Source: an archaeon
GTDB lineage: Archaea > Iainarchaeota > Iainarchaeia > Iainarchaeales > JAAZKV01
Direction: 5' to 3'
Assembly (NCBI GenBank): GCA_041661245.1
Contig: JBAZUY010000001.1
Span: forward strand, 64,491-128,490
DNA: 64,000 bases
Shown here: positions 2,592-48,756 of the stretch, piece after piece
Layout: every line of letters begins with the position of its first letter
Numbering within the stretch: the stretch's first letter is position 1
The notes under the pieces: model-generated
What the model was told of the DNA's origin: nothing
Databases searched by the model: none
The model's input: the letters and a program-made list of their open reading frames with translations, nothing else
Made by a program: the position numbers and the translations under genes

Positions 2592-5048
2592 TTAACTTGT
2601 TCTACAATCTGCAGTGTTAGTAATTCCTTCCCATGCAAGCGGAGGATATCCGATTCCCTCACAAATGTTGCTCCAATTCTTATCAGCACCAAATGTCCAA
2701 GCATCCGTTCCAGTGTATACTGCATGAGTAATTGGGAAGAAAGTACTATCAGTTGTTGAATAGAAAGAATTTGTGACTGGGTCTTGGCCAGTATCTCCAC
2801 CAATTAAACCCCCACTCACATAATAACCATCAACCATAATTGGTCCAGTAGCAAAACAATTTGTAACAGCACCATAACTTCTACCAACTAATCCCCCAAC
2901 TTCAATACTCCCACTTGAAGTACCAGTTGAATAGGAATTTAAAATTGGAGGAGAACCATAACCGTACTGTTGACCTGTAAGCCCGCCAATGTTATATGTT
3001 CCAGAAACACTCGCAGTAGAGTAAGTATTAGAAACTCTTCCAGATGTTTGAGCCCCAATTAACCCACCAACATGCCAAGACCCTGACAACCCAGTAACTA
3101 CCCCAGTACTGTAACAAGCATTAACAACACCATAACTATTAATTCCAATTAATGCACCAGTATCATTAATTCCAGTCACATTAGCATCTACGAGACCAAT
3201 ATTTTTTATTGTACCATATTCATTCACACCAAACAAACCAACAGTATTCTGAGCTCTGTTAATATACAATCCATATATTTTGTGCCCCCCACCATCAAAT
3301 GTTCCTCTAAAACCACTAACTGTTTGAAGAGGCCCAATTGGAGCAAACCCATTTCCATCATTCCAAAAAACTCCGCCCGCATGAGTCGCAGTATACATGT
3401 TTAAATCTGTTGTCAGCAAATAGCTTGCCTGAAGATTTAATTGAATGTCATTCATGTCAAGCACATCATCAATCAAATAAGGGGACAACGCAGTTCCGCT
3501 TCCTCCGCAAATATGCCCAAGCGGACAAGAATCACAAGCATCACCAACACCATCCGAATCAGTATCTTTTTGAGAAGTATTTGGAACAGATAAACAATTA
3601 TCACAAGCATCACCAACACCATCATTATCAGAATCCTCTTGGCCAACATTTGAGACCAAAGCGCAATTGTCTTTTGAATTATTCAAATCATCCAAATCAA
3701 TATCCTCGACAAAAACTGGAAGAGAAGAACCACTCCAACTCCAAGGAATTCCCCAAGCTTGTGAAGAAGTATAAACTGCATGAGATGGAGAATACAAAAC
3801 GCTCTCTGATCCAACGTATGTTCCAAGACCATTATCAAAATCAGTAAAATATGAATTTGTTATTGTACCAACAGGAGTAAGATTTGCCCCTAGTAATCCA
3901 CCATAAGTTGAATTCACTCTAAGCCGACTCGTTGAAAAAGAATTAATTATACTCCCGCTACTTAATCGACCACTAATTCCTCCTCCAGAAGAGCCAGCAT
4001 TTACATCCCCTCGTGAATAAGAATTAATTATTCTCCCAAATACTCCCCCACTAATTCCTCCCGCACTACCCATTCTTGCATTAACATCAACATCCGAATA
4101 ACAATTTAGAATTTCCCCAGATCGTTGCATTCCAACAATTCCACCAACATACTGCGCGCCAATAACTGACCCGCTAACAAAACAATTTTGGAGTTTACCA
4201 TAATTAATGCCCGCGATTGATCCCGCAGTAATTCCTGTAGAATTAACGTTTACATCAATTAGTAAAATATTTTTTATAATACTACTATACCCTGGAGAAC
4301 TAAATAACCCCCTACTATTCCCCGAACCAATTTTTAATCCCATAATTTTATTCCATCTACCATCGAGTCCCCCATTAAATTGATTTGTGCCTGTTCCAAT
4401 CGGCACAAATCCGGCCGCAGTATTAAATGGATCCACATCACAATTAATGTCATTCATAAGAACATAATACCCGTTCAAATCATTCCAAATATTATTCAAA
4501 TCATTACAAGTTTGAATTTTATAAATATTTGAATAAGAAGAATCAGCGAATCTTGCGGTTAAAGGAAGAACTGGATTTCGAGCATTATTGGAATCCGCAT
4601 TCAAAACACATTCTACATTAGTAGTATAGGAATATTTTTTTTCAACCCCATACTTTGAACGAGTATAAACAATTAATTCACATTGCTTTTTTTTACTAGG
4701 AGAATCACAAACACAACCTGTTATTCCATTTAAAGAAAATGTTTTTTGCTCAATTTCTCCAAAATAAATATTATCATAAGGAACTTGCTTTCCGCCAAGA
4801 CTTATTTTTTCTATGGTAAGTGAATCCCCCGTATTATTTCCAAGAACTATTATTGCATTTCCAGAAGCATCCAACACTGAATCAGAAATTGAAATCGAAG
4901 AAGTTTTGTCACCCAAAGTAGACATGTTTGTTGAAGTATCCCCCGTATTTGTATTAGAGGACATTATCCCAACCACTACAAGAGAAAGAACAACTACTAC
5001 CCCAATTATTACAAGATACTCAACTGTACCCTGCCCCCGATTAAACAT
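2592..5048 (-). CDS. Surface adhesin with archaeal class III (pilin-type) signal peptide, two GLUG-motif repeat arrays and two thrombospondin type 3 calcium-binding repeats
   Basis: N-terminus is [29 protein letters not shown]. There are many GG(L/I)(I/V/L)G repeats (GGIVG, GGLLG, GGLIG, GGLTG, GGLVG). [14 protein letters not shown] and [14 protein letters not shown] lie between the two arrays. Confidence 0.75.
3531..3623 (-). repeat. Two copies of a 24-nt identical segment, 69 nt apart, encoding the TSP3 core DGVGDACD
   Basis: atcacaagcatcaccaacaccatc occurs at 3531-3554 and again at 3600-3623. Confidence 0.85.
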
Positions 5049-38048: not shown

Positions 38049-38279
38049 TTAATCAGAATCAAAATCTTCTTCATCACTGCCGGAAGATGCTTCTTCTTCC
38101 TCTTCTTCCATTTCGAATTCTTTACTTTCAATAAGTTTCAAAGCGCCCTTTTTGTCGGCAATTACAGTGTACTCTAGGTTACATTCAGAGCAAGCAACTG
38201 CATCTCCTTCTTCAAGGTCATCAATATTAACCTCAAATCTTGCCTTACATTCAGTGCATAATTTCTTCATTGAAGCCAT
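38049..38279 (-). CDS. LysW/ArgW-like zinc-ribbon protein with extended acidic C-terminal tail (76 aa from ATG 38279)
   Basis: MASMKKLCTECKARFEVNIDDLEEGDAVACSECNLEYTVI has the LysW layout: CxxC, then E.GD.V.CxxC, then an E-x-x-V beta strand. The tail is EFEMEEEEEEASSGSDEEDFDSD. The upstream part of the 102-aa track ORF overlaps the TATA box and is probably not coding. Confidence 0.6.
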   Translation of the reverse strand: MASMKKLCTECKARFEVNIDDLEEGDAVACSECNLEYTVIADKKGALKLIESKEFEMEEEEEEASSGSDEEDFDSD

Positions 38280-38301
38280 ACTTATTTTCCACCCATTTTC
38301 C

Positions 38302-38309
38302 TTTATAAA
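38302..38309 (-). promoter_or_regulatory. TATA-box-like element for the LysW-like gene
   Basis: tttataaa is centred about 26 nt upstream of ATG 38279. Confidence 0.35.
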
Positions 38310-38417
38310 CCTTTCCAAAATGGTCAAAAAATGCATTAAAATTAGTTTAAATGGCAAAATAAGAGAACGAGCTTAGTTAGGATAAGGGAAAAAGCTTAAT
38401 TTTGCCCCGTGTGGGTA

Positions 38418-39035: not shown

Positions 39036-39575
39036 TCATAATTCTTTTTTCATTAAACAGTTATCAACATATTTTTCATTAATTAGAGCTGCTTTTTTCA
39101 ATAACCCGTATTTTGAAAATCCAAGTTTTTTATAAAGCAAAATTGCAGGTTTATTTTTTGAATCAACTGCCAAAAGAACAAGTGTTTTGGACCCAGGTAA
39201 ATTCTTCAAAGTGAATTCCATTAAACCAATTCCAATACGATGACGACGATGAGAAGACTCAACAACAAGCGAAGAAATTTCAGCCCTGTGCTTATGTAAA
39301 CCTTTGCCGAAAACTACTTTGACATGCGCAACAATTCTTCCATTTTCTAGTGCAACAAATCGCTTATCAATTCCCTTAATAGTAGCACTTAATTTTTTTT
39401 GAACAGAAGATTTTTTCCAGTGCGGAAACAGAGCATGCACCTCGGAAATAGTGTTCAAATTTAATTCAGAGAGTTCTCCAAATATAATTCCGTCAAGCGA
39501 AGCTTTTGGGGAATTAATTTCATTTTTGGCACCCGCCAAAGGAAGATTATGCCCCAAAGCCATAATTTTAATCAA
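39036..39575 (-). CDS. GNAT-family N-acetyltransferase
   Basis: ISSLVVESSHRRHRIGIGLMEF (motif A) and LLYKKLGFSKYG. Its start overlaps the stop of the upstream protease gene by 4 nt. Confidence 0.7.
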   Translation of the reverse strand: MIKIMALGHNLPLAGAKNEINSPKASLDGIIFGELSELNLNTISEVHALFPHWKKSSVQKKLSATIKGIDKRFVALENGRIVAHVKVVFGKGLHKHRAEISSLVVESSHRRHRIGIGLMEFTLKNLPGSKTLVLLAVDSKNKPAILLYKKLGFSKYGLLKKAALINEKYVDNCLMKKEL

Positions 39576-40018
39576 CTCCTTTGTTTCTTTGCCAAATCAC
39601 TCTTTAGTTGGAGTCTTACTCGTTCGTTAGCATCTTTTGAGTCCCCAACTTTATTACTAGTATGAGTTTTTGAAACATCAATCAAAAAATTATTGTGAAT
39701 AATATCTCTTCCAATTAAAACTGAATAAGGCAAACCTTCTCTATCTTCAATATTTACTCCAGTTTTAATTTTCTTACCTTTAACAATAATAATTGCTTCA
39801 GCAATTGCTCTTCTTGTATAACCCCGAGGAGAAGAAGCACTCTTTATTTTAACACTTGAAATAATTGGTCCAACCCCTGCTTTAGCAGCGGTACGAACAT
39901 CAATACAAGTTCTTGTAGCACCAGTATCAAAAAGAGCTTTTTTTATTATAACTCCTTTCTTCCCCTTTATTCGAACCAAATCAACTAAACCAATTATTTT
40001 TTTTCCTTTGCTCATCAA
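39572..40018 (-). CDS. DUF785 / RimB-like retropepsin-fold protease (family historically named ATP-dependent zinc protease)
   Basis: ALFDTGATRTCID (DTGA), SASSPRGYTRRAI and EDREGLPYSVLIGRDIIHNNFLIDVS match the family usually encoded next to rimK. Confidence 0.7.
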   Translation of the reverse strand: MMSKGKKIIGLVDLVRIKGKKGVIIKKALFDTGATRTCIDVRTAAKAGVGPIISSVKIKSASSPRGYTRRAIAEAIIIVKGKKIKTGVNIEDREGLPYSVLIGRDIIHNNFLIDVSKTHTSNKVGDSKDANERVRLQLKSDLAKKQRS

Positions 40019-40096
40019 ATCAAATCATACTTATAAGGAAAACCGTATTATTAACCCTTTTGGGAAGGTTTTTACAAAAATCAAAAAGCAAAACCT

Positions 40097-40104
40097 TTTA
40101 TAGG
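40097..40104 (+). promoter_or_regulatory. TATA-box-like element for the plus-strand ATP-grasp operon
   Basis: ttttatag lies 27-34 nt upstream of ATG 40131, inside the 112-nt divergent intergenic region. Confidence 0.35.
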
Positions 40105-40130
40105 AATGGATACACAGTAGCATTTGTTAC

Positions 40131-41048
40131 ATGGACATACTAATACTCGCGGAGAAAAAGAAAAATGCTGAAATGTTCGTGAGCGCAATTAAGGCAAAAG
40201 GCCATAATGCAACCTATATTCGCTTGTCCAAAATAATATTAGTCAGCAAACAAAATGAGAGCTTAATAAAATCTAAGGGAGAGGAATTAGCCCCCTATGA
40301 TGCAGTATTTATCCAAGCAAGAACTACCCTTGCCCCATTCATAGAGCCATTACTTGACCAATTAGAATCAGAAGGCTGCTACACCACTTCTAAAAAAGGC
40401 TCGTATTATATTGGAATGAACGAACCATACCAATTTGTAACCCTTTCTGTTGCAAAAGCACCAATACCAAAATCAATTACTTCAGGAAATGCAAAAAACA
40501 TTGAACACTTGTCAAAAAAACTAACTTACCCGTTACTTGCAAAATCCTTTATTGGAAGAACTGTCCAACAAGCAATCGTAGTAAACAACGCAAGAGCGCT
40601 AAATAGTTACATTAAAAGTATAAAAACAGAGATTGACGGATTCATGTTACGCCAATTCTCCAAAGCAGACATCATTTCGAGTGTAATGATTGGAAAAAAA
40701 ATATTCTCGGTGAAAAGAAAATTTACTGACGGAATAACTGCTGAAATTAGCGAAGGAAAAATTTACAAAGTAAGTGAGAGTGAAACAAAAACCATTTTCT
40801 CAGCAGCAAAAGCCTGCGGGTATGATATTGCAAGAGTAGATTTGTGTAAAGGAAAAATTGTGAAAGTTGATCCAATAATACCTTGGACGGATTTTAATAA
40901 GATTTGCTCAGAAAGAATTGAAGATTATGTGGCGGATTTTTTAATTGAACAAGCTATCCAAAATGAAGGAAAAAGAAAAGTTAAATATGATTTCCTAGGA
41001 TTAAGAAAAATATTTGGAAAAACTATTCTTGGGTGGTTATTCAAATGA
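40131..41048 (+). CDS. RimK-like ATP-grasp paralog with degenerate nucleotide-binding motifs
   Basis: Same length and layout as the next gene. However, the glycine-rich loop reads YPLLAKSFIGRTVQQAIVV, the RxN..GG block is missing, and only ARVDL and KVDP remain. Confidence 0.55.
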   Translation: MDILILAEKKKNAEMFVSAIKAKGHNATYIRLSKIILVSKQNESLIKSKGEELAPYDAVFIQARTTLAPFIEPLLDQLESEGCYTTSKKGSYYIGMNEPYQFVTLSVAKAPIPKSITSGNAKNIEHLSKKLTYPLLAKSFIGRTVQQAIVVNNARALNSYIKSIKTEIDGFMLRQFSKADIISSVMIGKKIFSVKRKFTDGITAEISEGKIYKVSESETKTIFSAAKACGYDIARVDLCKGKIVKVDPIIPWTDFNKICSERIEDYVADFLIEQAIQNEGKRKVKYDFLGLRKIFGKTILGWLFK

Positions 41049-41974
41049 CTCCCACAAAAATAATTTTCCCAGAACACACTCAAATACAAAAAGAAAATAA
41101 GAGTCTTTTAATAATCGGGTCAAAAACTTACAAACAATCAACCGTAAACATGCTTCTTGAAGAAGCAAAAAAGAAATTTTCAAATGTAATGTTTGTCCCA
41201 ATCGACAAAATACAAATACTTTCAGTTGAAGGAAAAACTGAACTCATTTACAAGGACAAAAACCTTCTTGAATTTGATGCAATTTACCCAAGACTTTCTT
41301 CAAGAGACTTTTTACTAGGAGAAGCGGTACTGAAAACAATTGAGAATAGCAAAGCATACTGCCCAGTAAATCTATCTGCATACCAAATATCAAATCATAA
41401 ATTTTATACCTCAAAAAAATTATCAAATCAAGGAATACCTGGGATTACAAGTACTTTATTTATTTCCCCAAAATATGCAGATTATGCCGTGGACGAAACA
41501 GGGTATCCTTTTGTAATGAAATTAATCTCAGGATTTGCAGGAAAAGGAGTTGTATTAATTAACTCTAAAGAACAAATGGAAAGCATACTTGAAGCAGTAC
41601 ACCTCTTTGAAGAATTTATTTCAACCCAAAAATTCATTAAGGGAAAAGACTCGGATGTACGATGCTATGTTATTGGAGATTATGTAATTGCAGTAAAAAG
41701 AAAATGTAAAAAAGGAGATTGGAGAGCAAACATTTCAAGAGGAGGAAGTGCAAGTCTAATTAATCCAACTCCCGAAATGCTAAATATTGCAAAAACAAGT
41801 GCAAAAGCACTTGGAATGGATTTGTGCTCAGTAGATTTAATGGAATACAAGAAAAAATGGGTAGTAATAGAAGTAAACTTTATGCCAGGACCTTTTAGAA
41901 AATTCCTCGGAAGCATGATTGCACAACAATGGATAAGATTTTTGTTTGAAAAATCAGGTAAGAACCAAAAATAA
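41045..41974 (+). CDS. RimK/LysX-family ATP-grasp ligase (canonical motifs)
   Basis: YPFVMKLISGFAGKGVVLI, DVRCYVIGDYVIA, WRANISRGGSA, CSVDLME...VIEVNFMPG. ATG 41045 overlaps the upstream TGA (ATGA). Confidence 0.8.
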   Translation: MTPTKIIFPEHTQIQKENKSLLIIGSKTYKQSTVNMLLEEAKKKFSNVMFVPIDKIQILSVEGKTELIYKDKNLLEFDAIYPRLSSRDFLLGEAVLKTIENSKAYCPVNLSAYQISNHKFYTSKKLSNQGIPGITSTLFISPKYADYAVDETGYPFVMKLISGFAGKGVVLINSKEQMESILEAVHLFEEFISTQKFIKGKDSDVRCYVIGDYVIAVKRKCKKGDWRANISRGGSASLINPTPEMLNIAKTSAKALGMDLCSVDLMEYKKKWVVIEVNFMPGPFRKFLGSMIAQQWIRFLFEKSGKNQK

Positions 41975-42036
41975 ACCAAGAGTCAAATAAAAAGCAATAT
42001 TAACTTCGCGTATGCTTACATATTACAGGCGATATT

Positions 42037-43173
42037 ATGCGATTTTTCAATTACACCCTTATTGATCAAAAAATCTGCCAACTAGCCGGCGCTATTGAAA
42101 CTAATCTACTAACTTACATTAACCCTCAAAATCTTGGAGAACAAAAGAAAAAATTCTTTGAATCCTTAAACAAAAATGAACAATATAACCCAGTTTTTAC
42201 TTACGCGTCAAGAAATCCACTTTATACATATTTTGACATGAATCCCAATTTTAAAATATACCAAAATGAATTAAAGGAATTAATTAAAGACCTCGGGGAA
42301 GACTCATTAGGAATAATATTTGAAAAAAAAATAATTGATCTTTTTGAGAGAATGGAACTAGTACGAAGCGTAGGAACCGAAAACTTTGCAGGAAACTCCG
42401 AATCCTATTATGGCACTGTGGACCCCCAAACATTAAGAAGAGCTAAAGAGTTATTGTCAAAAGAAATTGTTCTTGAGGAGAAAAAAATTCACTTTGATGA
42501 AGCGAAAAAAGTAATTGAAGCATTTTTGAAAAAGAAAAAACTCAATTACAAAGTAAAACAACGAGAAACTGAAAACGGAGCAAAATTTTCAGTAAATATA
42601 AGAACAAAAGAAATCTTCATTAACAAGGATGTGTTCTTTTCTGAAAATACACTCCGAAGACTTATTGCTCACGAAATAGAAGGACACGTTTACCGATATG
42701 AAAATGGACTCCTGCAGCCATATGGAATATTTTCAAGAGGATTATCAAAAGAAACACTTGAAACGGAAGAAGGCCTTGCAGTTTATATTGAACAACAACA
42801 AAAAATTAATATTGATGCCCAACTCAAAGAATATGCTGGAAGAGTCATGGCTATTACTACCGCATCAAAGAAAAGTTTCTTTGAAACATTTGAAGAAATG
42901 AACAAATACTTTTCACAAGAAGACTCCTTCACACTCGCGCTCCGAGCAAAAAGAGGAACATGGAAACAAGATGTTGGAAGTGCTTTTACAAAAGATGCAC
43001 TTTACTTAAAAGGGCTGCTATTGGTTGAAGACTTTTTGAAAGACCAAAAAGTTGAAACCCTTTACCACGGAAGATATTCCATAAACGACACCCCATTGGC
43101 TTTGGATATTGCGGGACTTGTAAAACCAGCACATCTGCCAGAGTGCTTAAAGAAAGAGAGCGCGAGAACATGA
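42037..43173 (+). CDS. DUF1704 / MATCAP-like metallocarboxypeptidase (QEGLA-motif family)
   Basis: IAHEIEGHV (HExxxH) followed by ETEEGLAVYIE (EGLA motif); length about 378 aa. Confidence 0.65.
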   Translation: MRFFNYTLIDQKICQLAGAIETNLLTYINPQNLGEQKKKFFESLNKNEQYNPVFTYASRNPLYTYFDMNPNFKIYQNELKELIKDLGEDSLGIIFEKKIIDLFERMELVRSVGTENFAGNSESYYGTVDPQTLRRAKELLSKEIVLEEKKIHFDEAKKVIEAFLKKKKLNYKVKQRETENGAKFSVNIRTKEIFINKDVFFSENTLRRLIAHEIEGHVYRYENGLLQPYGIFSRGLSKETLETEEGLAVYIEQQQKINIDAQLKEYAGRVMAITTASKKSFFETFEEMNKYFSQEDSFTLALRAKRGTWKQDVGSAFTKDALYLKGLLLVEDFLKDQKVETLYHGRYSINDTPLALDIAGLVKPAHLPECLKKESART

Positions 43174-44240
43174 TTTCAATAGATGATTCAACGAAAATCA
43201 AAAACATTAAACCACTTACTCTTCAAGCCCTACAAAAAGTGTTTGACCTCTATGAGATTACCCCGAAAAGCAATGTGCTTTTGTGGAGCAATACAAGCAA
43301 AAATAAGGTTTCTGAAAAACTAGCAAAAACATTTCTCCAAAGACTCAATCAACTCGGGTGCACCACATCTGTAATAATTGAAAAAGAAAAAACAAAACTG
43401 GGCCCAGCATCAAAAAAAACCCAAAAATGTATTCTTTCATTGACCCAGGGGGATATCTTTATTTCAATAGGCGCAGGAAATAGGGGATACGTGGAACAGA
43501 ATGGAAAACATGTTTTAATGAGAAAACTCATGAAAAAACAAGGGTTTAGGATGGTTTCTCTTGGAGGACTGGATTCAATAAAACTGCATAGAATAAATTC
43601 ATTTTTTGAAAGTTTTAATCATAATCAAAAAGAAATTAACTCCCTCAATAAAAAAATCAAAAATCTTTTAGAAAAAACAAAAACAATCAAAATTACTTGC
43701 CCAAAAGGAAGTAACTTAACAATGGAACTTAATAAAAACCCCGTGATTTCAAACGATGGAAACTGGAAAAAATACTCCACAAACTACCCAATAGGCGAAG
43801 TATACACCGCACCGAAAGAAGATTCCTGCAATGGAATTGCATTTGTTTCAAGCGCAAAGGTTTCTGGAAAAACTATTCTGCCCAAAAAACCAATAAAATT
43901 TATTTTTGAAAAAGGCTTACTTAAATCCACAAATAGCAAAGAAATTAACTCAAATCTAAAATATGTGGAGAAATTCAATAAAAAAAATAATATATTAAAT
44001 TGGAAAACCGCACCCCGAACAATTGCTGAGTTTGCTATTGGAACAAATAGAAAAGCAAGTATTGTGGGCGCAATGATTTGTGATGAAAAAACTCTGGGCA
44101 CTTGCCACTTTGCCATAGGAAACAATAAACACCTTGGAGGAAAAACTTACTGCCACGGACACTTTGATAACGTAATAAAAAATCCCACAATATGGTTTGA
44201 TGGAAAAAAAATAATGACAAATGGAAAACTTTTATTTTGA
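43170..44240 (+). CDS. M29-family (AmpS/PepS-like) aminopeptidase
   Basis: YPIGEVYTAP, EFAIGTN, CDEKTLGTCHFAIGNN, HGHFD. ATG 43170 overlaps the upstream TGA (ATGA). Confidence 0.7.
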   Translation: MISIDDSTKIKNIKPLTLQALQKVFDLYEITPKSNVLLWSNTSKNKVSEKLAKTFLQRLNQLGCTTSVIIEKEKTKLGPASKKTQKCILSLTQGDIFISIGAGNRGYVEQNGKHVLMRKLMKKQGFRMVSLGGLDSIKLHRINSFFESFNHNQKEINSLNKKIKNLLEKTKTIKITCPKGSNLTMELNKNPVISNDGNWKKYSTNYPIGEVYTAPKEDSCNGIAFVSSAKVSGKTILPKKPIKFIFEKGLLKSTNSKEINSNLKYVEKFNKKNNILNWKTAPRTIAEFAIGTNRKASIVGAMICDEKTLGTCHFAIGNNKHLGGKTYCHGHFDNVIKNPTIWFDGKKIMTNGKLLF

Positions 44241-45178: not shown

Positions 45179-45595
45179 TTACTTAAATTCCAAAATATCC
45201 CTATATTTTACTAACGGAGTATCTTTTGATTTAATAAAAATTGACCCCTCTTCATTAGCCAAAAGCTCTTCAACAGAATTTGAACCCACTTTCAAATCCA
45301 TAATCGTTAATTCTTTCCCATTTAGTTTAGCCTTCATTTTTTTCTTTAATTTACCGCACTCAACAAACCCCAAAACCATTGTAAGAGTCCCAGTATCATA
45401 GACCCCCGAAACTTTGAATCTATTAAATTGTTTTGCTTTTTGTAAAAACACTTCTCCGGAAGTTTCTCTATCCTTCGCACCATTTTTTACATGATTAGGA
45501 ATTAGAACTGAAGAATCCTCTGCCCCGCCAAGAATCATATCCTCTTCGGATTGAACAGAATCATTCTTTTTCTTTAAAAAATCAAACAAACCCAT
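45179..45595 (-). CDS. Hypothetical protein (C-terminal half resembles a translation-factor domain-2-type beta barrel)
   Basis: 138-aa ORF; the GFVECGKLKKKMKAKLNGKELTIMDLKV pattern is only a weak resemblance. Confidence 0.4.
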   Translation of the reverse strand: MGLFDFLKKKNDSVQSEEDMILGGAEDSSVLIPNHVKNGAKDRETSGEVFLQKAKQFNRFKVSGVYDTGTLTMVLGFVECGKLKKKMKAKLNGKELTIMDLKVGSNSVEELLANEEGSIFIKSKDTPLVKYRDILEFK

Positions 45596-45797
45596 AAACT
45601 AAAGATGCTTAGAAACAAATAAAAAGTCTGCCAAAGAGACAAAATACTCCAATTGCTATTTAACAATCAAAACAATGCTTAGGAAATCCTTTTGAGAAAG
45701 CCAACTACATTTATTGAGATAATGCCCACTAAACAGGCAGGATTAAATACTTGAAAAAGTAGAATTACTAATCGACTCTGTGCGAGGTGAAAAATAA

Positions 45798-45872
45798 ATG
45801 GCTCCAAAAAGTAAAGCAAAACCAAAAGCAAAAGCGGCTAAAAAAAGTGGCGGATGTTGCTGCTGCCAATAA
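45798..45872 (+). CDS. Micro-ORF 1: 24-aa polybasic peptide MAPKSKAKPKAKAAKKSGGCCCCQ
   Basis: gaggtga Shine-Dalgarno lies 6 nt upstream of the ATG. The ORF has its own terminator hairpin 19 nt after the stop. It is below the ORF-track size cutoff. Confidence 0.55.
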   Translation: MAPKSKAKPKAKAAKKSGGCCCCQ

Positions 45873-45890
45873 ATAAATTAAATTAATTCG

Positions 45891-45911
45891 CTGGAGTAAA
45901 AAAAACTCCAG
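45891..45911 (+). terminator. Hairpin plus T-run after micro-ORF 1
   Basis: ctggag-taaaaaaaa-ctccag followed by caactattttttt. Confidence 0.5.
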
Positions 45912-46035
45912 CAACTATTTTTTTAAAAAATAATAAACGTGAGAAAAATATCTCTAAAAAAATACCAATGCTTATATATTAGATAAGGACTCTTCTGAAT
46001 AGAACTAATTTTTTTGGTTCAGGGGTGAAATAAAA

Positions 46036-46086
46036 ATGGCAGCAAAAAAGAAAAAAGCAGTTAAGAGAAAAGCTAAGAAAAAATAA
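46036..46086 (+). CDS. Micro-ORF 2: 16-aa polybasic peptide MAAKKKKAVKRKAKKK
   Basis: ggggtga lies 8 nt upstream of the ATG, and TATA-like cttatatatt about 60 nt upstream. A strong terminator hairpin follows 26 nt after the stop. Confidence 0.5.
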   Translation: MAAKKKKAVKRKAKKK

Positions 46087-46112
46087 TTTTCTAGTAAAAC
46101 TATTTTTTGTAA

Positions 46113-46136
46113 GGCGAAAGGATTTTTCCTTTCGCC
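46113..46136 (+). terminator. Perfect 10-bp hairpin after micro-ORF 2
   Basis: ggcgaaagga-tttt-tcctttcgcc. Confidence 0.55.
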
Positions 46137-46324
46137 AAAAATAAAACAGCAAAACAATTTTAACAAACTTCTCCAGTTAATTGCAAATATTGTATTTCAA
46201 CTGCAAAATAAATAAATTAATCAATAAATTTTTTATAATAAAACAAATAATTCATTATTGAAAAAATCTATCTGGTTTAAAATACTTTCATCATTCATTT
46301 ATTTATTGCCTTTAGTGGATTACA

Positions 46325-47749
46325 ATGTTTCAAAAAGAAGAACAAGAAAAAAATCACGATCAAAACTCAGAAAAAAATTCTGTTCAACAGGATTCTGAAA
46401 CTAAAAATGGTAACGGTAACGGACACGACGAAACAAAAGTAAAAACAAAACAACCTTTTGAATCAAAAAAATTCTTATTCGTTTCAATAGATGCACTAAT
46501 CACAGACATCGCATGGCAGGTAAAGAAAGAAGGACATGAGGTAAAATACTATATTGAAGACAAAGGCGAAAATGAAGTTGGGGACGGATTCGTTGAAAAG
46601 GTAACTGACTGGGAAAAAGAAGTTGATTGGGCGGATGTAATTGTTTTTGATGATGTTTTAGGACACGGAAAAAAAGCCAAAGCAATGAGAGATAGAGGAA
46701 AAAAAGTTGTAGGCGGAACACCATATACTGATCGATTAGAGGATGAAAGAGCATTTGGACAAGAAGAATTAGTGAAATACGGAATACCAGTAGCACCATA
46801 CAAAGATTTTACTAAATTTGATGATGCAATTCAATTTGTAAAGGATAACCCTGGAAAATATGTAATAAAACCAAGCGGAGAAGCGCAAAACAACAAAGGA
46901 CTATTGTTTATCGGTGAAGAAGAAGATGGAAAAGATGTTATCCAAGTATTAATGGATTACAAAAGTGCTTGGCAAAAGAAAATACCTGATTTTCAACTCC
47001 AAAAGAAACTCAGCGGAGTAGAAGTTGCGGTAGGAGCATTCTTCAATGGAAAAGAATTCATTTACCCAGTAAACATTAACTTTGAACACAAAAAATTATT
47101 TCCTGGAAACCTTGGACCCTCAACAGGAGAAATGGGAACTACAATGTTCTGGACTGGTCCGAACAAATTATTTAACTCAACTCTAAAAAAGTTCGAACAA
47201 AAGTTTGCAGAAGAAAACTATGTAGGGTATATTGACATTAATTTTATAGTAAACACTAACGGAATATATCCCCTTGAATGGACTTCACGCTTCGGATATC
47301 CAACAATAAGTATCCAGCAGGAATCATTCATTACCCCTATTGGAGAATTTTTATACGATTTAGCAAACGGTAACAACCCAAAACTTAAAGTAAAGAGCGG
47401 ATTCCACATAGGAGTAAGAATAGTAGTACCTCCCTTCCCATTCGATGATGACAAAACTTTTGAAGTAAAGTCAAAAGACTCAATAATATTTTTGAAGAAA
47501 CCAAATTATGAAGGAATACACTTAGAAGATGTAAAAATGGTTAATGATGAATGGCTAGTAACAGGAAACACAGGGGTAATACTAATCGTTTGCGGAAGCG
47601 GACAGACAATGAGACAAGCTCAAAAACAAGCATACAGCCGAATAAAAAATATTCTAATACCCCACATGTACTACCGAACAGATATTGGGGACAGATGGTT
47701 TGAAGACTCGGATAAATTAACTACTTGGGGATATTTAAGAGAAGCTTAA
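46325..47749 (+). CDS. PurD (GAR synthetase)-like ATP-grasp enzyme with low-complexity N-terminal extension
   Basis: KYVIKPSGEAQNNKGLLF and FEHKKLFPGNLGPSTGEMGT parallel the PurD blocks (IKADGLAAGKG, DHKR..DGD.GPNTGGMG). The N-terminal GGREHA motif is absent. No other pur genes are in the window. Confidence 0.6.
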   Translation: MFQKEEQEKNHDQNSEKNSVQQDSETKNGNGNGHDETKVKTKQPFESKKFLFVSIDALITDIAWQVKKEGHEVKYYIEDKGENEVGDGFVEKVTDWEKEVDWADVIVFDDVLGHGKKAKAMRDRGKKVVGGTPYTDRLEDERAFGQEELVKYGIPVAPYKDFTKFDDAIQFVKDNPGKYVIKPSGEAQNNKGLLFIGEEEDGKDVIQVLMDYKSAWQKKIPDFQLQKKLSGVEVAVGAFFNGKEFIYPVNINFEHKKLFPGNLGPSTGEMGTTMFWTGPNKLFNSTLKKFEQKFAEENYVGYIDINFIVNTNGIYPLEWTSRFGYPTISIQQESFITPIGEFLYDLANGNNPKLKVKSGFHIGVRIVVPPFPFDDDKTFEVKSKDSIIFLKKPNYEGIHLEDVKMVNDEWLVTGNTGVILIVCGSGQTMRQAQKQAYSRIKNILIPHMYYRTDIGDRWFEDSDKLTTWGYLREA

Positions 47750-47808
47750 TAATAACTGATTTCAAAAAATGTTTTTTTAACTAGTGCTCGACACGATTTT
47801 TGTGTTAA

Positions 47809-48294
47809 ATGATTGGTATGAATCATGAGAAAGAAAAAGTTATTCAAAAAATAAAGAATACTTACTGTCGAATAATGCCTTCAAAGCTTCACGGCGTTGG
47901 AGTATTTGCGATAAGAGACATCCCAAAAGATATAAATCCATTCGGGATAGAAACAAAACAAAAATGGGTCCGAGTTCACTTAAAAGACCTTGGCGAAATA
48001 CACCCAAACCTTAACGAGATGATAGAAGCATTTTATGTAATAAAAAAAGACGGAAGTGTATGGATAAACTCAGGCGGACTCGGATCAATTGGAATATCCT
48101 TTTACATGAACACTTCAAAAAACCCAAACATGAAAACAATTGATGAAGGATTTACTTTTATTACAAGCAAAGAAATAAAATGCGGGGAAGAGTTGCTCGC
48201 AGATTATGGAGAATTCGACTGGAAATACAAGCAATCCGAGAAAGATAAAACAAAAACTAAATTGATAAAGAAAAACAAAACTAAAGGCAAGTAA
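47809..48294 (+). CDS. SET-domain protein (divergent) with lysine-rich tail
   Basis: LHGVGVFAIRDIPKD, FYMNTSKNPNM (degenerate NHSxxPN), GEELLADYG. Confidence 0.55.
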   Translation: MIGMNHEKEKVIQKIKNTYCRIMPSKLHGVGVFAIRDIPKDINPFGIETKQKWVRVHLKDLGEIHPNLNEMIEAFYVIKKDGSVWINSGGLGSIGISFYMNTSKNPNMKTIDEGFTFITSKEIKCGEELLADYGEFDWKYKQSEKDKTKTKLIKKNKTKGK

Positions 48295-48327
48295 AAAAAT
48301 GGAAGAATTAACTGCGAAGATGATCTT

Positions 48328-48756
48328 ATGAAATATCCCTCAAAAGTAATTAAAATTTCTTACGGCAAAGCACTAGTTGCAACAAAAGATTTACCTGCAG
48401 GGACAGTTGTTCAAAAATTTGAAGGAGAAATAATGACTTACAAAGAAGTTCCCGAGGATATGGTTTGCCATGCGATTTGCGTTGGAGAAGAAAACGAGGA
48501 TAAATGGGTTGTTTCAAAAACAGATGCAATTTATGCCAATCATGCATGCGAACCAAACTGCGAAGTTGGGGATGATTTAAACATCATAACCATAAAAGAA
48601 GTAAAAAAAGACGAAGAACTAACATTTGTTTACAATGAACTTAGTCCTGAAGAACGAGAAGCAGAGTTCTTGTGGGATAAAAAATGGGACTTTGAATGCA
48701 AATGCGGCAGTAAAAACTGCCAAGGAAACATTAACAAATACGTAAAAAGAAAATAA
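48328..48756 (+). CDS. SET-domain protein-lysine methyltransferase with post-SET Cys motif
   Basis: GKALVATKDLPAGTVV, YANHACEPNCEV, DEELTFVYN, CKCGSKNCQG. Confidence 0.85.
   Translation: MKYPSKVIKISYGKALVATKDLPAGTVVQKFEGEIMTYKEVPEDMVCHAICVGEENEDKWVVSKTDAIYANHACEPNCEVGDDLNIITIKEVKKDEELTFVYNELSPEEREAEFLWDKKWDFECKCGSKNCQGNINKYVKRK

Follow-up and report, generated by a model that had tools for sequence, protein, structure and literature searches.

The locus and its two small open reading frames

The 729-nt gap that is treated here lies on contig JBAZUY010000001.1 of an archaeal genome assembly, between the divergently oriented gene of a 138-aa protein and an open reading frame (ORF) for an ATP-grasp protein, and it holds two very short ORFs for polybasic peptides, sORF1 with 24 codons and sORF2 with 16 codons (Table 1). 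It belongs to a stretch of 64,000 nt with a G+C content of 34%, which was analyzed as a whole and is called the window in the following; the nearest genome records for the genes of the window are metagenome-assembled genomes (MAGs) of Woesearchaeota/Nanoarchaeota. A preliminary description of this DNA had placed two micro-ORFs in a gap of 730 nt, each preceded by a strong Shine-Dalgarno (SD) sequence and followed by its own hairpin, and had taken them for real, separately expressed genes. Both start codons are found where they had been reported, and each SD sequence lies 7 nt from its ATG. The second hairpin is indeed a perfect one of 10 bp, which ends one base before the coordinate that had been implied; the first hairpin is also present, but its stem has 8 bp and not the 6 bp that had been given. 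As to the genes themselves, the comparative evidence from the conserved frame, signals and synteny strongly supports this proposal, and we consider it very likely that both sORFs are translated.

Gene callers discard ORFs as short as these. The exact 24-aa sORF1 peptide has no match in a collection of 15 billion predicted proteins, and sORF1 can therefore be regarded as unannotated; a search of the PDB with the same peptide gave no match either. In Rfam, only two tRNAs are found at gathering level, and the gap itself yields only sub-threshold noise. The start of sORF1 appears well defined, as an in-frame TAA directly precedes the ATG in the window. The related locus L084 has an in-frame upstream ATG that extends sORF1 to 30 codons, and there the frame is called by the gene caller of the Joint Genome Institute (JGI), but this additional ATG is not conserved, and an upstream start was ruled out.

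The peptides of all orthologs consist of 29-73% Lys/Arg and contain few Ala/Val; their second residue is Ala, and bulky hydrophobic residues as well as Asp and Glu are completely missing. sORF1 peptides invariantly end in S-(G/S)-G-C-C-C-C-(Q/K), and carry a conserved cysteine cluster, as would be expected of a metallothionein-like, metal-binding peptide. In the literature, we found no described counterpart of such an invariant Cys4 tail on a poly-Lys peptide, and nothing specific on comparable archaeal peptides or on RimK/MATCAP systems that act on small peptides.

Table 1. Features in and around the gap, with positions in the window
Feature	Position	Strand	Remarks
138-aa gene, divergent	45179..45595	-	constant neighbor of the sORFs; 35 family members; NCBI: hypothetical protein
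TATA-like box ATTAAATA of sORF1	45742..45749	+	within block GGATTAAATACTT (45740-45752), nearly invariant in the five-lineage alignment
Conserved block TACTAATC	45766..45773	+	conserved columns in the five-lineage alignment
SD sequence GAGGTGA of sORF1	45784..45790	+	in all five lineages; spacing 6-8 nt, spacer bases variable
sORF1, 24 codons and stop	45798..45872	+	peptide MAPKSKAKPKAKAAKKSGGCCCCQ; stop TAA 45870-45872
3' stem-loop of sORF1, 8 bp	45890..45912	+	GCTGGAGT/ACTCCAGC
CTATTTTTTT run after the sORF1 stem-loop	45915..45924	+	CTATTTTT invariant in five lineages
TATA-like box CTTATATA of sORF2	45971..45978	+	TTATATA/TTAAATA at equal distance in window, L084, L088, L092, L183
Hairpin GAACTA-loop-TRGTTC in the 5' untranslated region (5' UTR) of sORF2	46002..46020	+	adjoins the SD sequence; modest stability
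SD sequence GGGGTGA of sORF2	46022..46028	+	invariant in five lineages; spacing 6-7 nt
sORF2, 16 codons and stop	46036..46086	+	peptide MAAKKKKAVKRKAKKK; stop 46084-46086
CTATTTTTTG run, 14 nt past the sORF2 stop	46100..46109	+	conserved in window, L084, L088
3' stem-loop of sORF2, perfect 10 bp	46113..46136	+	GGCGAAAGGA/TCCTTTCGCC; T-run 5', A-run 3'
ATP-grasp ORF	46325..47749	+	
SET-domain genes	47809..48294, 48328..48756		
Candidate forms of the two peptides			APKSKAKPKAKAAKKSGGCCCCQ, AAKKKKAVKRKAKKK

Conservation of the reading frames

The divergent 138-aa gene served as the anchor for finding relatives, and the contigs of 11 of its homologs were examined. By this route, the same locus with sORFs was recovered in five to six related lineages (Table 2), which answers the call of the preliminary description for a check of conservation and synteny. 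sORF1 occurs in five lineages, with 24 aa in the window and in L084/L088 (the latter with ..KTAKK..), 22 aa in L089 and 21 aa in L095. Also sORF2 occurs in five lineages, with three versions of 16 aa (window, L084 and L088) and twice with 11 aa (L092 and L183).

Table 2. Occurrence of the two sORFs at loci (L-numbers) with a homolog of the 138-aa gene; percentages are amino-acid identities of the 138-aa protein to the window copy
Locus	Identity	sORF1	sORF2
L084 group	78%	MAPKSKAKPKAKTAKKSGGCCCCQ	MAAKKKVVKKKAAKKK
L088	79%	identical to that of L084	MVAKKKVVKKKAAKKC
L089 group	78%	MAPKSKAKPKAKAKSSGCCCCK	position beyond contig end
L095	67%	MAAKKKAKPKAKKSSGCCCCK	none; ATG of the next gene follows
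L092	45%	none	MAAKKKKAKKK
L183	47%	none	MAAKKKKAKKK
L179	47%	none	none
L181	52%	none	none

A nucleotide sequence that is conserved while its frame is not had been named beforehand as the sign of a small RNA, and the opposite was found. The frames are kept, and the orthologs differ in length only by multiples of three (6 and 9 nt in sORF1, 15 nt in sORF2). Among the 13 variable columns of sORF1, 4, 1 and 8 fall on codon positions 1, 2 and 3 (binomial p = 0.035), so that frame preservation is visible both in the synonymous bias and in the in-frame indels, although in a small sample. In the sORF1 frame, six codons vary only synonymously and five with a change of the amino acid, which is the best ratio of all six frames (at most 4:7 in the others). 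Two more frames stay open over the length of sORF1, but these were rejected as coding frames in view of their worse ratios of synonymous to non-synonymous changes. The cysteine codons show three exchanges between TGT and TGC and no replacement, which leaves CCCC invariant in all five lineages. For sORF2, window and L092 differ only by three synonymous third-position changes and one in-frame deletion of 15 nt, despite an identity of just 45% in the adjacent 138-aa protein.

In comparison to L084, the sORFs are the best conserved elements of the whole locus: at the nucleotide level, sORF1 is 95% and sORF2 92% identical, whereas the 138-aa gene reaches 78% and the ATP-grasp gene 68%, and the intervening spacers cannot be aligned. 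SD sequence, spacing, ATG and stop codon are retained across the lineages despite these variable spacers, and an SD sequence at 6-8 nt from the ATG, as expected for a translated archaeal gene with a ribosome-binding site that pairs with the 3' end of the 16S rRNA (expected spacing 5-9 nt), is present in all five sORF1 and all five sORF2 orthologs. The combination is also unusual statistically. GGTGA-N5-7-ATG occurs at 11 sites in the window, versus 4.0 +/- 1.9 in shuffled sequences, none of which (0 of 100) reached 11. Apart from the sORFs, eight of the nine sites are starts of long ORFs, and the motif therefore is a specific mark of translation starts in the window; the two sORFs are the only intergenic sites of this kind that have no long ORF behind them.

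The two units resemble each other. Both match GGTGAAA-N2-7-ATGGCNNCNAAR (shared: GGTGAAA-N-ATGGCnnCnAAr), and among 180 loci only those of this family do so. sORF1 of L095 and sORF2 of L084 have their first 19 coding nucleotides in common, and sORF2 of L088 ends in a cysteine. The two sORFs probably are paralogs, with a tandem duplication as the simplest reading of their likeness, which is weakened by the low complexity of the sequences.

No further copies were seen in the loci examined. Following synteny via the ATP-grasp gene gave no relatives: its homologs in 80 GTDB genomes have short upstream gaps without a polybasic sORF, and their downstream neighbors are unrelated from genome to genome. 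The loci L001-L003 represent a single strain (99.98% identical) and are uninformative with respect to conservation. A scan of viral contigs for GGN(TGY)4MARTAA gave 69 matches, all of which were chance, out of frame or unrelated. A scan of JGI metagenomes for ATGGC-N25-55-GGN(TGY)4MARTAA gave 14 matches, of which two are true and belong to lineages already found and the rest are chance; this stringent motif demanded a start with Met-Ala, an end with GCCCC[Q/K] and TAA as stop, so that divergent members may escape it. Judged from the sequences, the sORFs are a previously unannotated family of polybasic micro-protein genes that is limited to one DPANN clade.

Putative expression signals and stem-loops

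The TATA-like box of sORF1 lies in a nearly invariant block within a spacer that otherwise cannot be aligned. As it is located about 25 nt upstream of the conserved TACTAATC, it can be assigned a putative promoter role; the distance agrees with that in archaeal promoters. The TACTAATC block itself is the likely region of transcription start, which would give sORF1 a 5' UTR of about 27 nt. At the 3' side, a hairpin of -13 to -18 kcal/mol is predicted at the matching position in all five lineages, and none of 300 shuffled sequences folded as well. The stems differ from lineage to lineage (GCTGGAGT, GTTGAGGGC, CGCTGGGGTC, GCTGGGG) and all still pair. Covariation counts from MAFFT alignments were blurred, as the stems cannot be aligned by sequence, and folds of the individual sequences were used instead. 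A G+C-rich stem followed by a T-run is thus kept in the relatives, and the CTATTTTTTT run likely is the terminator of sORF1.

The 5'-UTR hairpin of sORF2 retains its six pairs in four lineages, with two one-sided G-U/A-U changes, and is also found in L183. The 3' stem of sORF2 has the same sequence in L084 and L088, whereas that of L183 (GGTGGGGAAA/TTTCCCTACC) differs and nevertheless pairs at -16 kcal/mol; L092 and L183 have a T5 run at the position of the CTATTTTTTG run. The 3' regions of both sORFs fold far better than shuffled sequences, and the folds show no structure within the ORF bodies. The stem-loop of sORF2 is situated inside a longer imperfect palindrome (46100-46149) with the T-run on the 5' and the A-run on the 3' side of the stem. 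A further observation concerns the upstream region of sORF1: L084 contains 2.4 tandem copies (4757-4905) of a 62-nt unit that is present once in the window and in L088. The unit holds the promoter-like box of sORF1 together with a partial inverted repeat (TTTAATCCTGC ... GCAGGATTAAA), and the repeat could be the binding site of a regulator.

Possible function of the encoded peptides

We think that the sORFs probably are separately expressed genes whose polycationic micro-protein products would bind to RNA or DNA, that of sORF1 carrying a Cys4 tail, a judgment in which the reality of the genes has the main weight. Each unit combines a TATA-like box and a short predicted 5' UTR, in which a strong GGTGA-type SD sequence lies 6-8 nt from the ATG, with an ORF of 11-24 codons, a T-run and a stable stem-loop. 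The units would be transcribed as monocistronic mRNAs of about 110-150 nt and translated. It is a general rule that the initiator methionine is removed before an alanine at position 2, and because both peptides have Ala2, Met1 probably would be cleaved off. The unstructured polycations would then bind electrostatically to a polyanion, which could be ribosome-borne rRNA or tRNA or else the genomic DNA with its high A+T content, and they would function as ribosome- or nucleoid-associated proteins of very small size. This binding is proposed tentatively and falls somewhat short of being probable, and it nonetheless is the most plausible of the functions that the preliminary description had offered. 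The Cys4 tail of sORF1 may couple the peptides mutually or to a partner by metal-thiolate or thiol chemistry, which would result in a bridged, protamine-like polycation; such a metal or thiol bridge is the more doubtful part of the proposal.

Several observations weigh against this interpretation. The substitution statistics rest on 13 variable columns. The sequence is A-rich and of low complexity, so that Lys-rich ORFs arise easily and alignments of sORF2 are partly ambiguous. Four cysteines in a row are ill suited, in their geometry, to the tetrahedral coordination of one metal ion. The stem of sORF2 departs from a classical terminator hairpin in that the T-run lies 5' of it, so that its function as a terminator is uncertain. 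Finally, the family is narrow and patchy, and L179 and L181, which have the same neighbors as the sORF loci, contain a gap without either sORF, so that the sORFs are either dispensable at this locus or located elsewhere in these genomes.

Among known systems, the bacterial ribosomal micro-proteins bS22, bL37 and Thx are comparable in that they are small, basic, clade-restricted and were missed by annotation. Proteins of this type were reportedly found later inside rRNA pockets (PMC5876184, PMC10081302). They belong to another domain of life and show no sequence similarity, and for the sORF peptides, ribosome association is putative. Protamines and the proteins that resemble histone H1 tails are likewise polycationic and of low complexity, with A/P/K repeats (S/T-P-K-K-like), and the cysteines of protamines bridge molecules. 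The sORF peptides are 2-5 times shorter and are based on Lys instead of Arg, and disulfides are unlikely in the cytoplasm of an anaerobe. Small GTPases and PRL phosphatases possess a polybasic stretch directly before C-terminal cysteines (CaaX, CC, CCxQ). With its CCCQ or CCCK end, sORF1 resembles such membrane anchors, but here the motif makes up the whole protein, and a protein prenyl- or acyl-transferase is neither known nor visible in the vicinity.

That two ORFs of 11-24 codons with complete expression signals are the most conserved elements of a locus is of interest beyond this case. If translated, they would rank, to our knowledge, with the shortest conserved stand-alone genes that have been suggested in archaea, and since the genomes of DPANN archaea are minimal, a polycation that is conserved and seems to be strongly expressed likely matters for the ribosome or for genome packaging.

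Alternative explanations

As alternative to nucleic-acid binding as such, the peptides might be substrates or precursors of enzymes encoded nearby, namely SET-domain lysine methyltransferases and/or RimK-type ligases, MATCAP and M29 peptidases, so that they would be free-standing tails whose modification state is functional. In each of the four lineages whose downstream side is visible (window, L084, L088 and L183), SET genes lie 3' of the sORFs, and linkage of two RimK genes, MATCAP and a RimB-like gene to the 138-aa gene is seen in the window, L092, L181 and L183. The peptides consist mostly of lysine, and sORF1 contains A-K-K-S, which we take to resemble the ARKS sites of histone H3. However, L181 has three SET genes, an ATP-grasp gene, two MATCAP and two RimK genes, yet its gap holds no sORF. 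RimK-type ligases extend a C-terminal Glu, whereas the sORF peptides end in Q, K or C. As a whole, the explanation appears unlikely, though a link of the sORFs to the SET genes may exist. In its most specific form, diffusible tail peptides would be written and erased by SET enzymes, RimK-type ligases, MATCAP and M29 peptidases, which is distinctly unlikely; if true, it would be a peptide-only prokaryotic counterpart of histone-tail or tubulin-tail modification, in which an ultra-small archaeon would have its ribosome or nucleoid tuned by a modified polycation, with the Cys4 end as the anchor of sORF1.

The preliminary description had also considered substrates of the adjacent ATP-grasp enzyme. 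This possibility found no support, as the PurD-like ATP-grasp protein occurs alone in hundreds of genomes and, in the loci analyzed here, without sORFs in 80 loci as well as in L179 and L181, and as L183 has sORF2 without ATP-grasp. A precursor of a ribosomally synthesized and post-translationally modified peptide of the graspetide or thiazole/oxazole type found no support either. No maturase is co-conserved (there is no radical-SAM maturase near the sORFs and no YcaO within +/-10 kb), and the acidic residues that, paired with Ser/Thr/Lys, would be acceptors or donors for the macrolactones or macrolactams of graspetide-type cross-links are missing in all orthologs.

It is quite improbable that the sORFs are small non-coding or dual-function RNAs in which the ORF is conserved only incidentally. 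The predicted transcripts have the size of small RNAs and carry conserved 5' and 3' hairpins, and the nucleotide conservation of the sORFs is very high. But there is no match to an Rfam family and the ORF bodies are unstructured. SD sequence, spacing, ATG and stop are retained as well, indels occur only in multiples of three, and the changes favor third positions and leave the encoded cysteines intact.

Very improbable is a third explanation, by which the sORFs are lysine-rich leader peptides that sense the supply of Lys-tRNA or stall on poly-A and thereby attenuate the downstream genes. They resemble the trpL and hisL leaders in having 11-24 codons among which a single amino acid prevails (29-73% Lys codons) and in the stem-loop after each ORF, and lysine-related enzymes are encoded nearby. 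Moreover, pairing is possible between the T-run behind sORF2 and the A-rich end of this ORF or, alternatively, between this T-run and the A-run past the stem. A-runs and T-runs pair trivially, though, and these alternative pairings are nothing else. Unlike in the trpL and hisL systems, the downstream gene is not constant but varies among lineages between sORF2, an ATP-grasp and a SET gene, in each case with a separate TATA-like box at about 25 nt upstream of the ATG; ATP-grasp and SET genes also exist without sORFs, and the invariant Cys4 tail would have no role in a leader. We know of no trpL/hisL-type attenuation that has been established in archaea.

The preliminary description had further suggested an eL41-like ribosomal protein, and sORF2 or sORF1 might be eL41/eS32 with Arg replaced by Lys owing to the AT-rich genome. 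eL41/eS32 (22-41 aa), which sits at the interface of the ribosomal subunits, is similarly very short, about 70% basic, unstructured and encoded by a stand-alone gene, and the sORF peptides, too, could plausibly be located inside RNA; composition and size class agree (69% basic), and an ungapped alignment gives 7 of 16 identities to yeast eL41. This likeness does not go beyond composition, since in alignments to the yeast and Pyrococcus proteins a fraction of 0.14-0.97 of the shuffled peptides was at least as good, whereas yeast versus P. abyssi eL41 beats all 2000 shuffles. The core K-W-x-K-K-R-x-R-R-L-K-R of solved ribosomes, or in full M-R-x-K-W-x-K-K-R-x-R-R-L-K-R-x-R-(R/K)-K in the PDB chains, is absent from the sORF peptides, which have neither Trp nor Leu; sORF2 has 11-16 aa, with the shortest versions in L092 and L183, and sORF1 has the additional Cys4 tail. 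Membership in eL41 was rejected and is hardly credible, but the peptides could still work in a way similar to eL41.

Chance ORFs with fortuitous SD-like motifs deserve next to no credence, even though A-rich DNA readily gives Lys-rich open frames and two further frames are open over sORF1, as all of the comparative evidence and the enrichment of SD-plus-ATG motifs with their specificity for real starts stand against them, and as the conservation of the sORFs where the flanking intergenic DNA is no longer alignable effectively refutes them.

Gene neighborhood

Along the window, the gap is preceded by genes for a RimB-like protease, two RimK-like ligases, a MATCAP/DUF1704 peptidase, an M29 peptidase, a HAD hydrolase, tRNA-Leu and the 138-aa protein, and followed, after the sORFs, by the ATP-grasp and the two SET-domain genes. 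This neighborhood recurs in several DPANN lineages (window 39572-44240 and 45179-48756; L181, L183 and L092), as a set of the RimB-like, two RimK-like and MATCAP/DUF1704 genes, sometimes M29, the 138-aa barrel protein and one to three SET genes.

The model of the 138-aa protein predicts a disordered N-terminus and a C-terminal beta-barrel with a pLDDT above 90, which appears most similar to PF0907, P. abyssi Pbp11 and domain II of EF-Tu. Pbp11 of P. abyssi has been described as binding tRNA and as interacting with the proteasome (PMC9540759). A Pbp11-like neighbor together with RimK-, RimB- and MATCAP-type genes lends weak, associative support to a translation-related role of the sORFs. Members of the 138-aa family always end in LEFK or LKFK, and one may speculate that this end is a C-terminal substrate for a pair of ligase and carboxypeptidase. 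A conserved block AGAAACAAATAAAAAGTCTGC (45611-45631) lies 16-36 nt upstream of the ATG of the 138-aa gene; its reverse complement contains the TATA-like TTTTTATTT, the position of which suggests a leaderless mRNA.

The ATP-grasp protein matches PurD (TIGR00877) with 113 bits, which is below the cutoff. It is 67-77% identical to homologs in Bacteroidota, Acidobacteriota, Gemmatimonadota, the Candidate Phyla Radiation and other DPANN archaea (L004-L083), and only 56% to the syntenic protein of the sister lineage L084 (2802-4226), which suggests two subfamilies or an in-place replacement by horizontal transfer. One homolog (P0010, 787 aa) probably contains an intein, because it carries a LAGLIDADG domain. 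Upstream of another homolog, in a different archaeal MAG (L007, about 3837-3920), an SD-led, poly-acidic micro-ORF MAEWDDDDFDDDGDDFDGDDGDD adjoins the ATP-grasp gene and is, in its charge, the mirror image of the polybasic sORFs. Finally, a 102-aa ORF on the minus strand (38049-38357), near the RimK-like genes, has a sub-threshold match to the LysW-type zinc ribbon and may encode an amino-group carrier protein.

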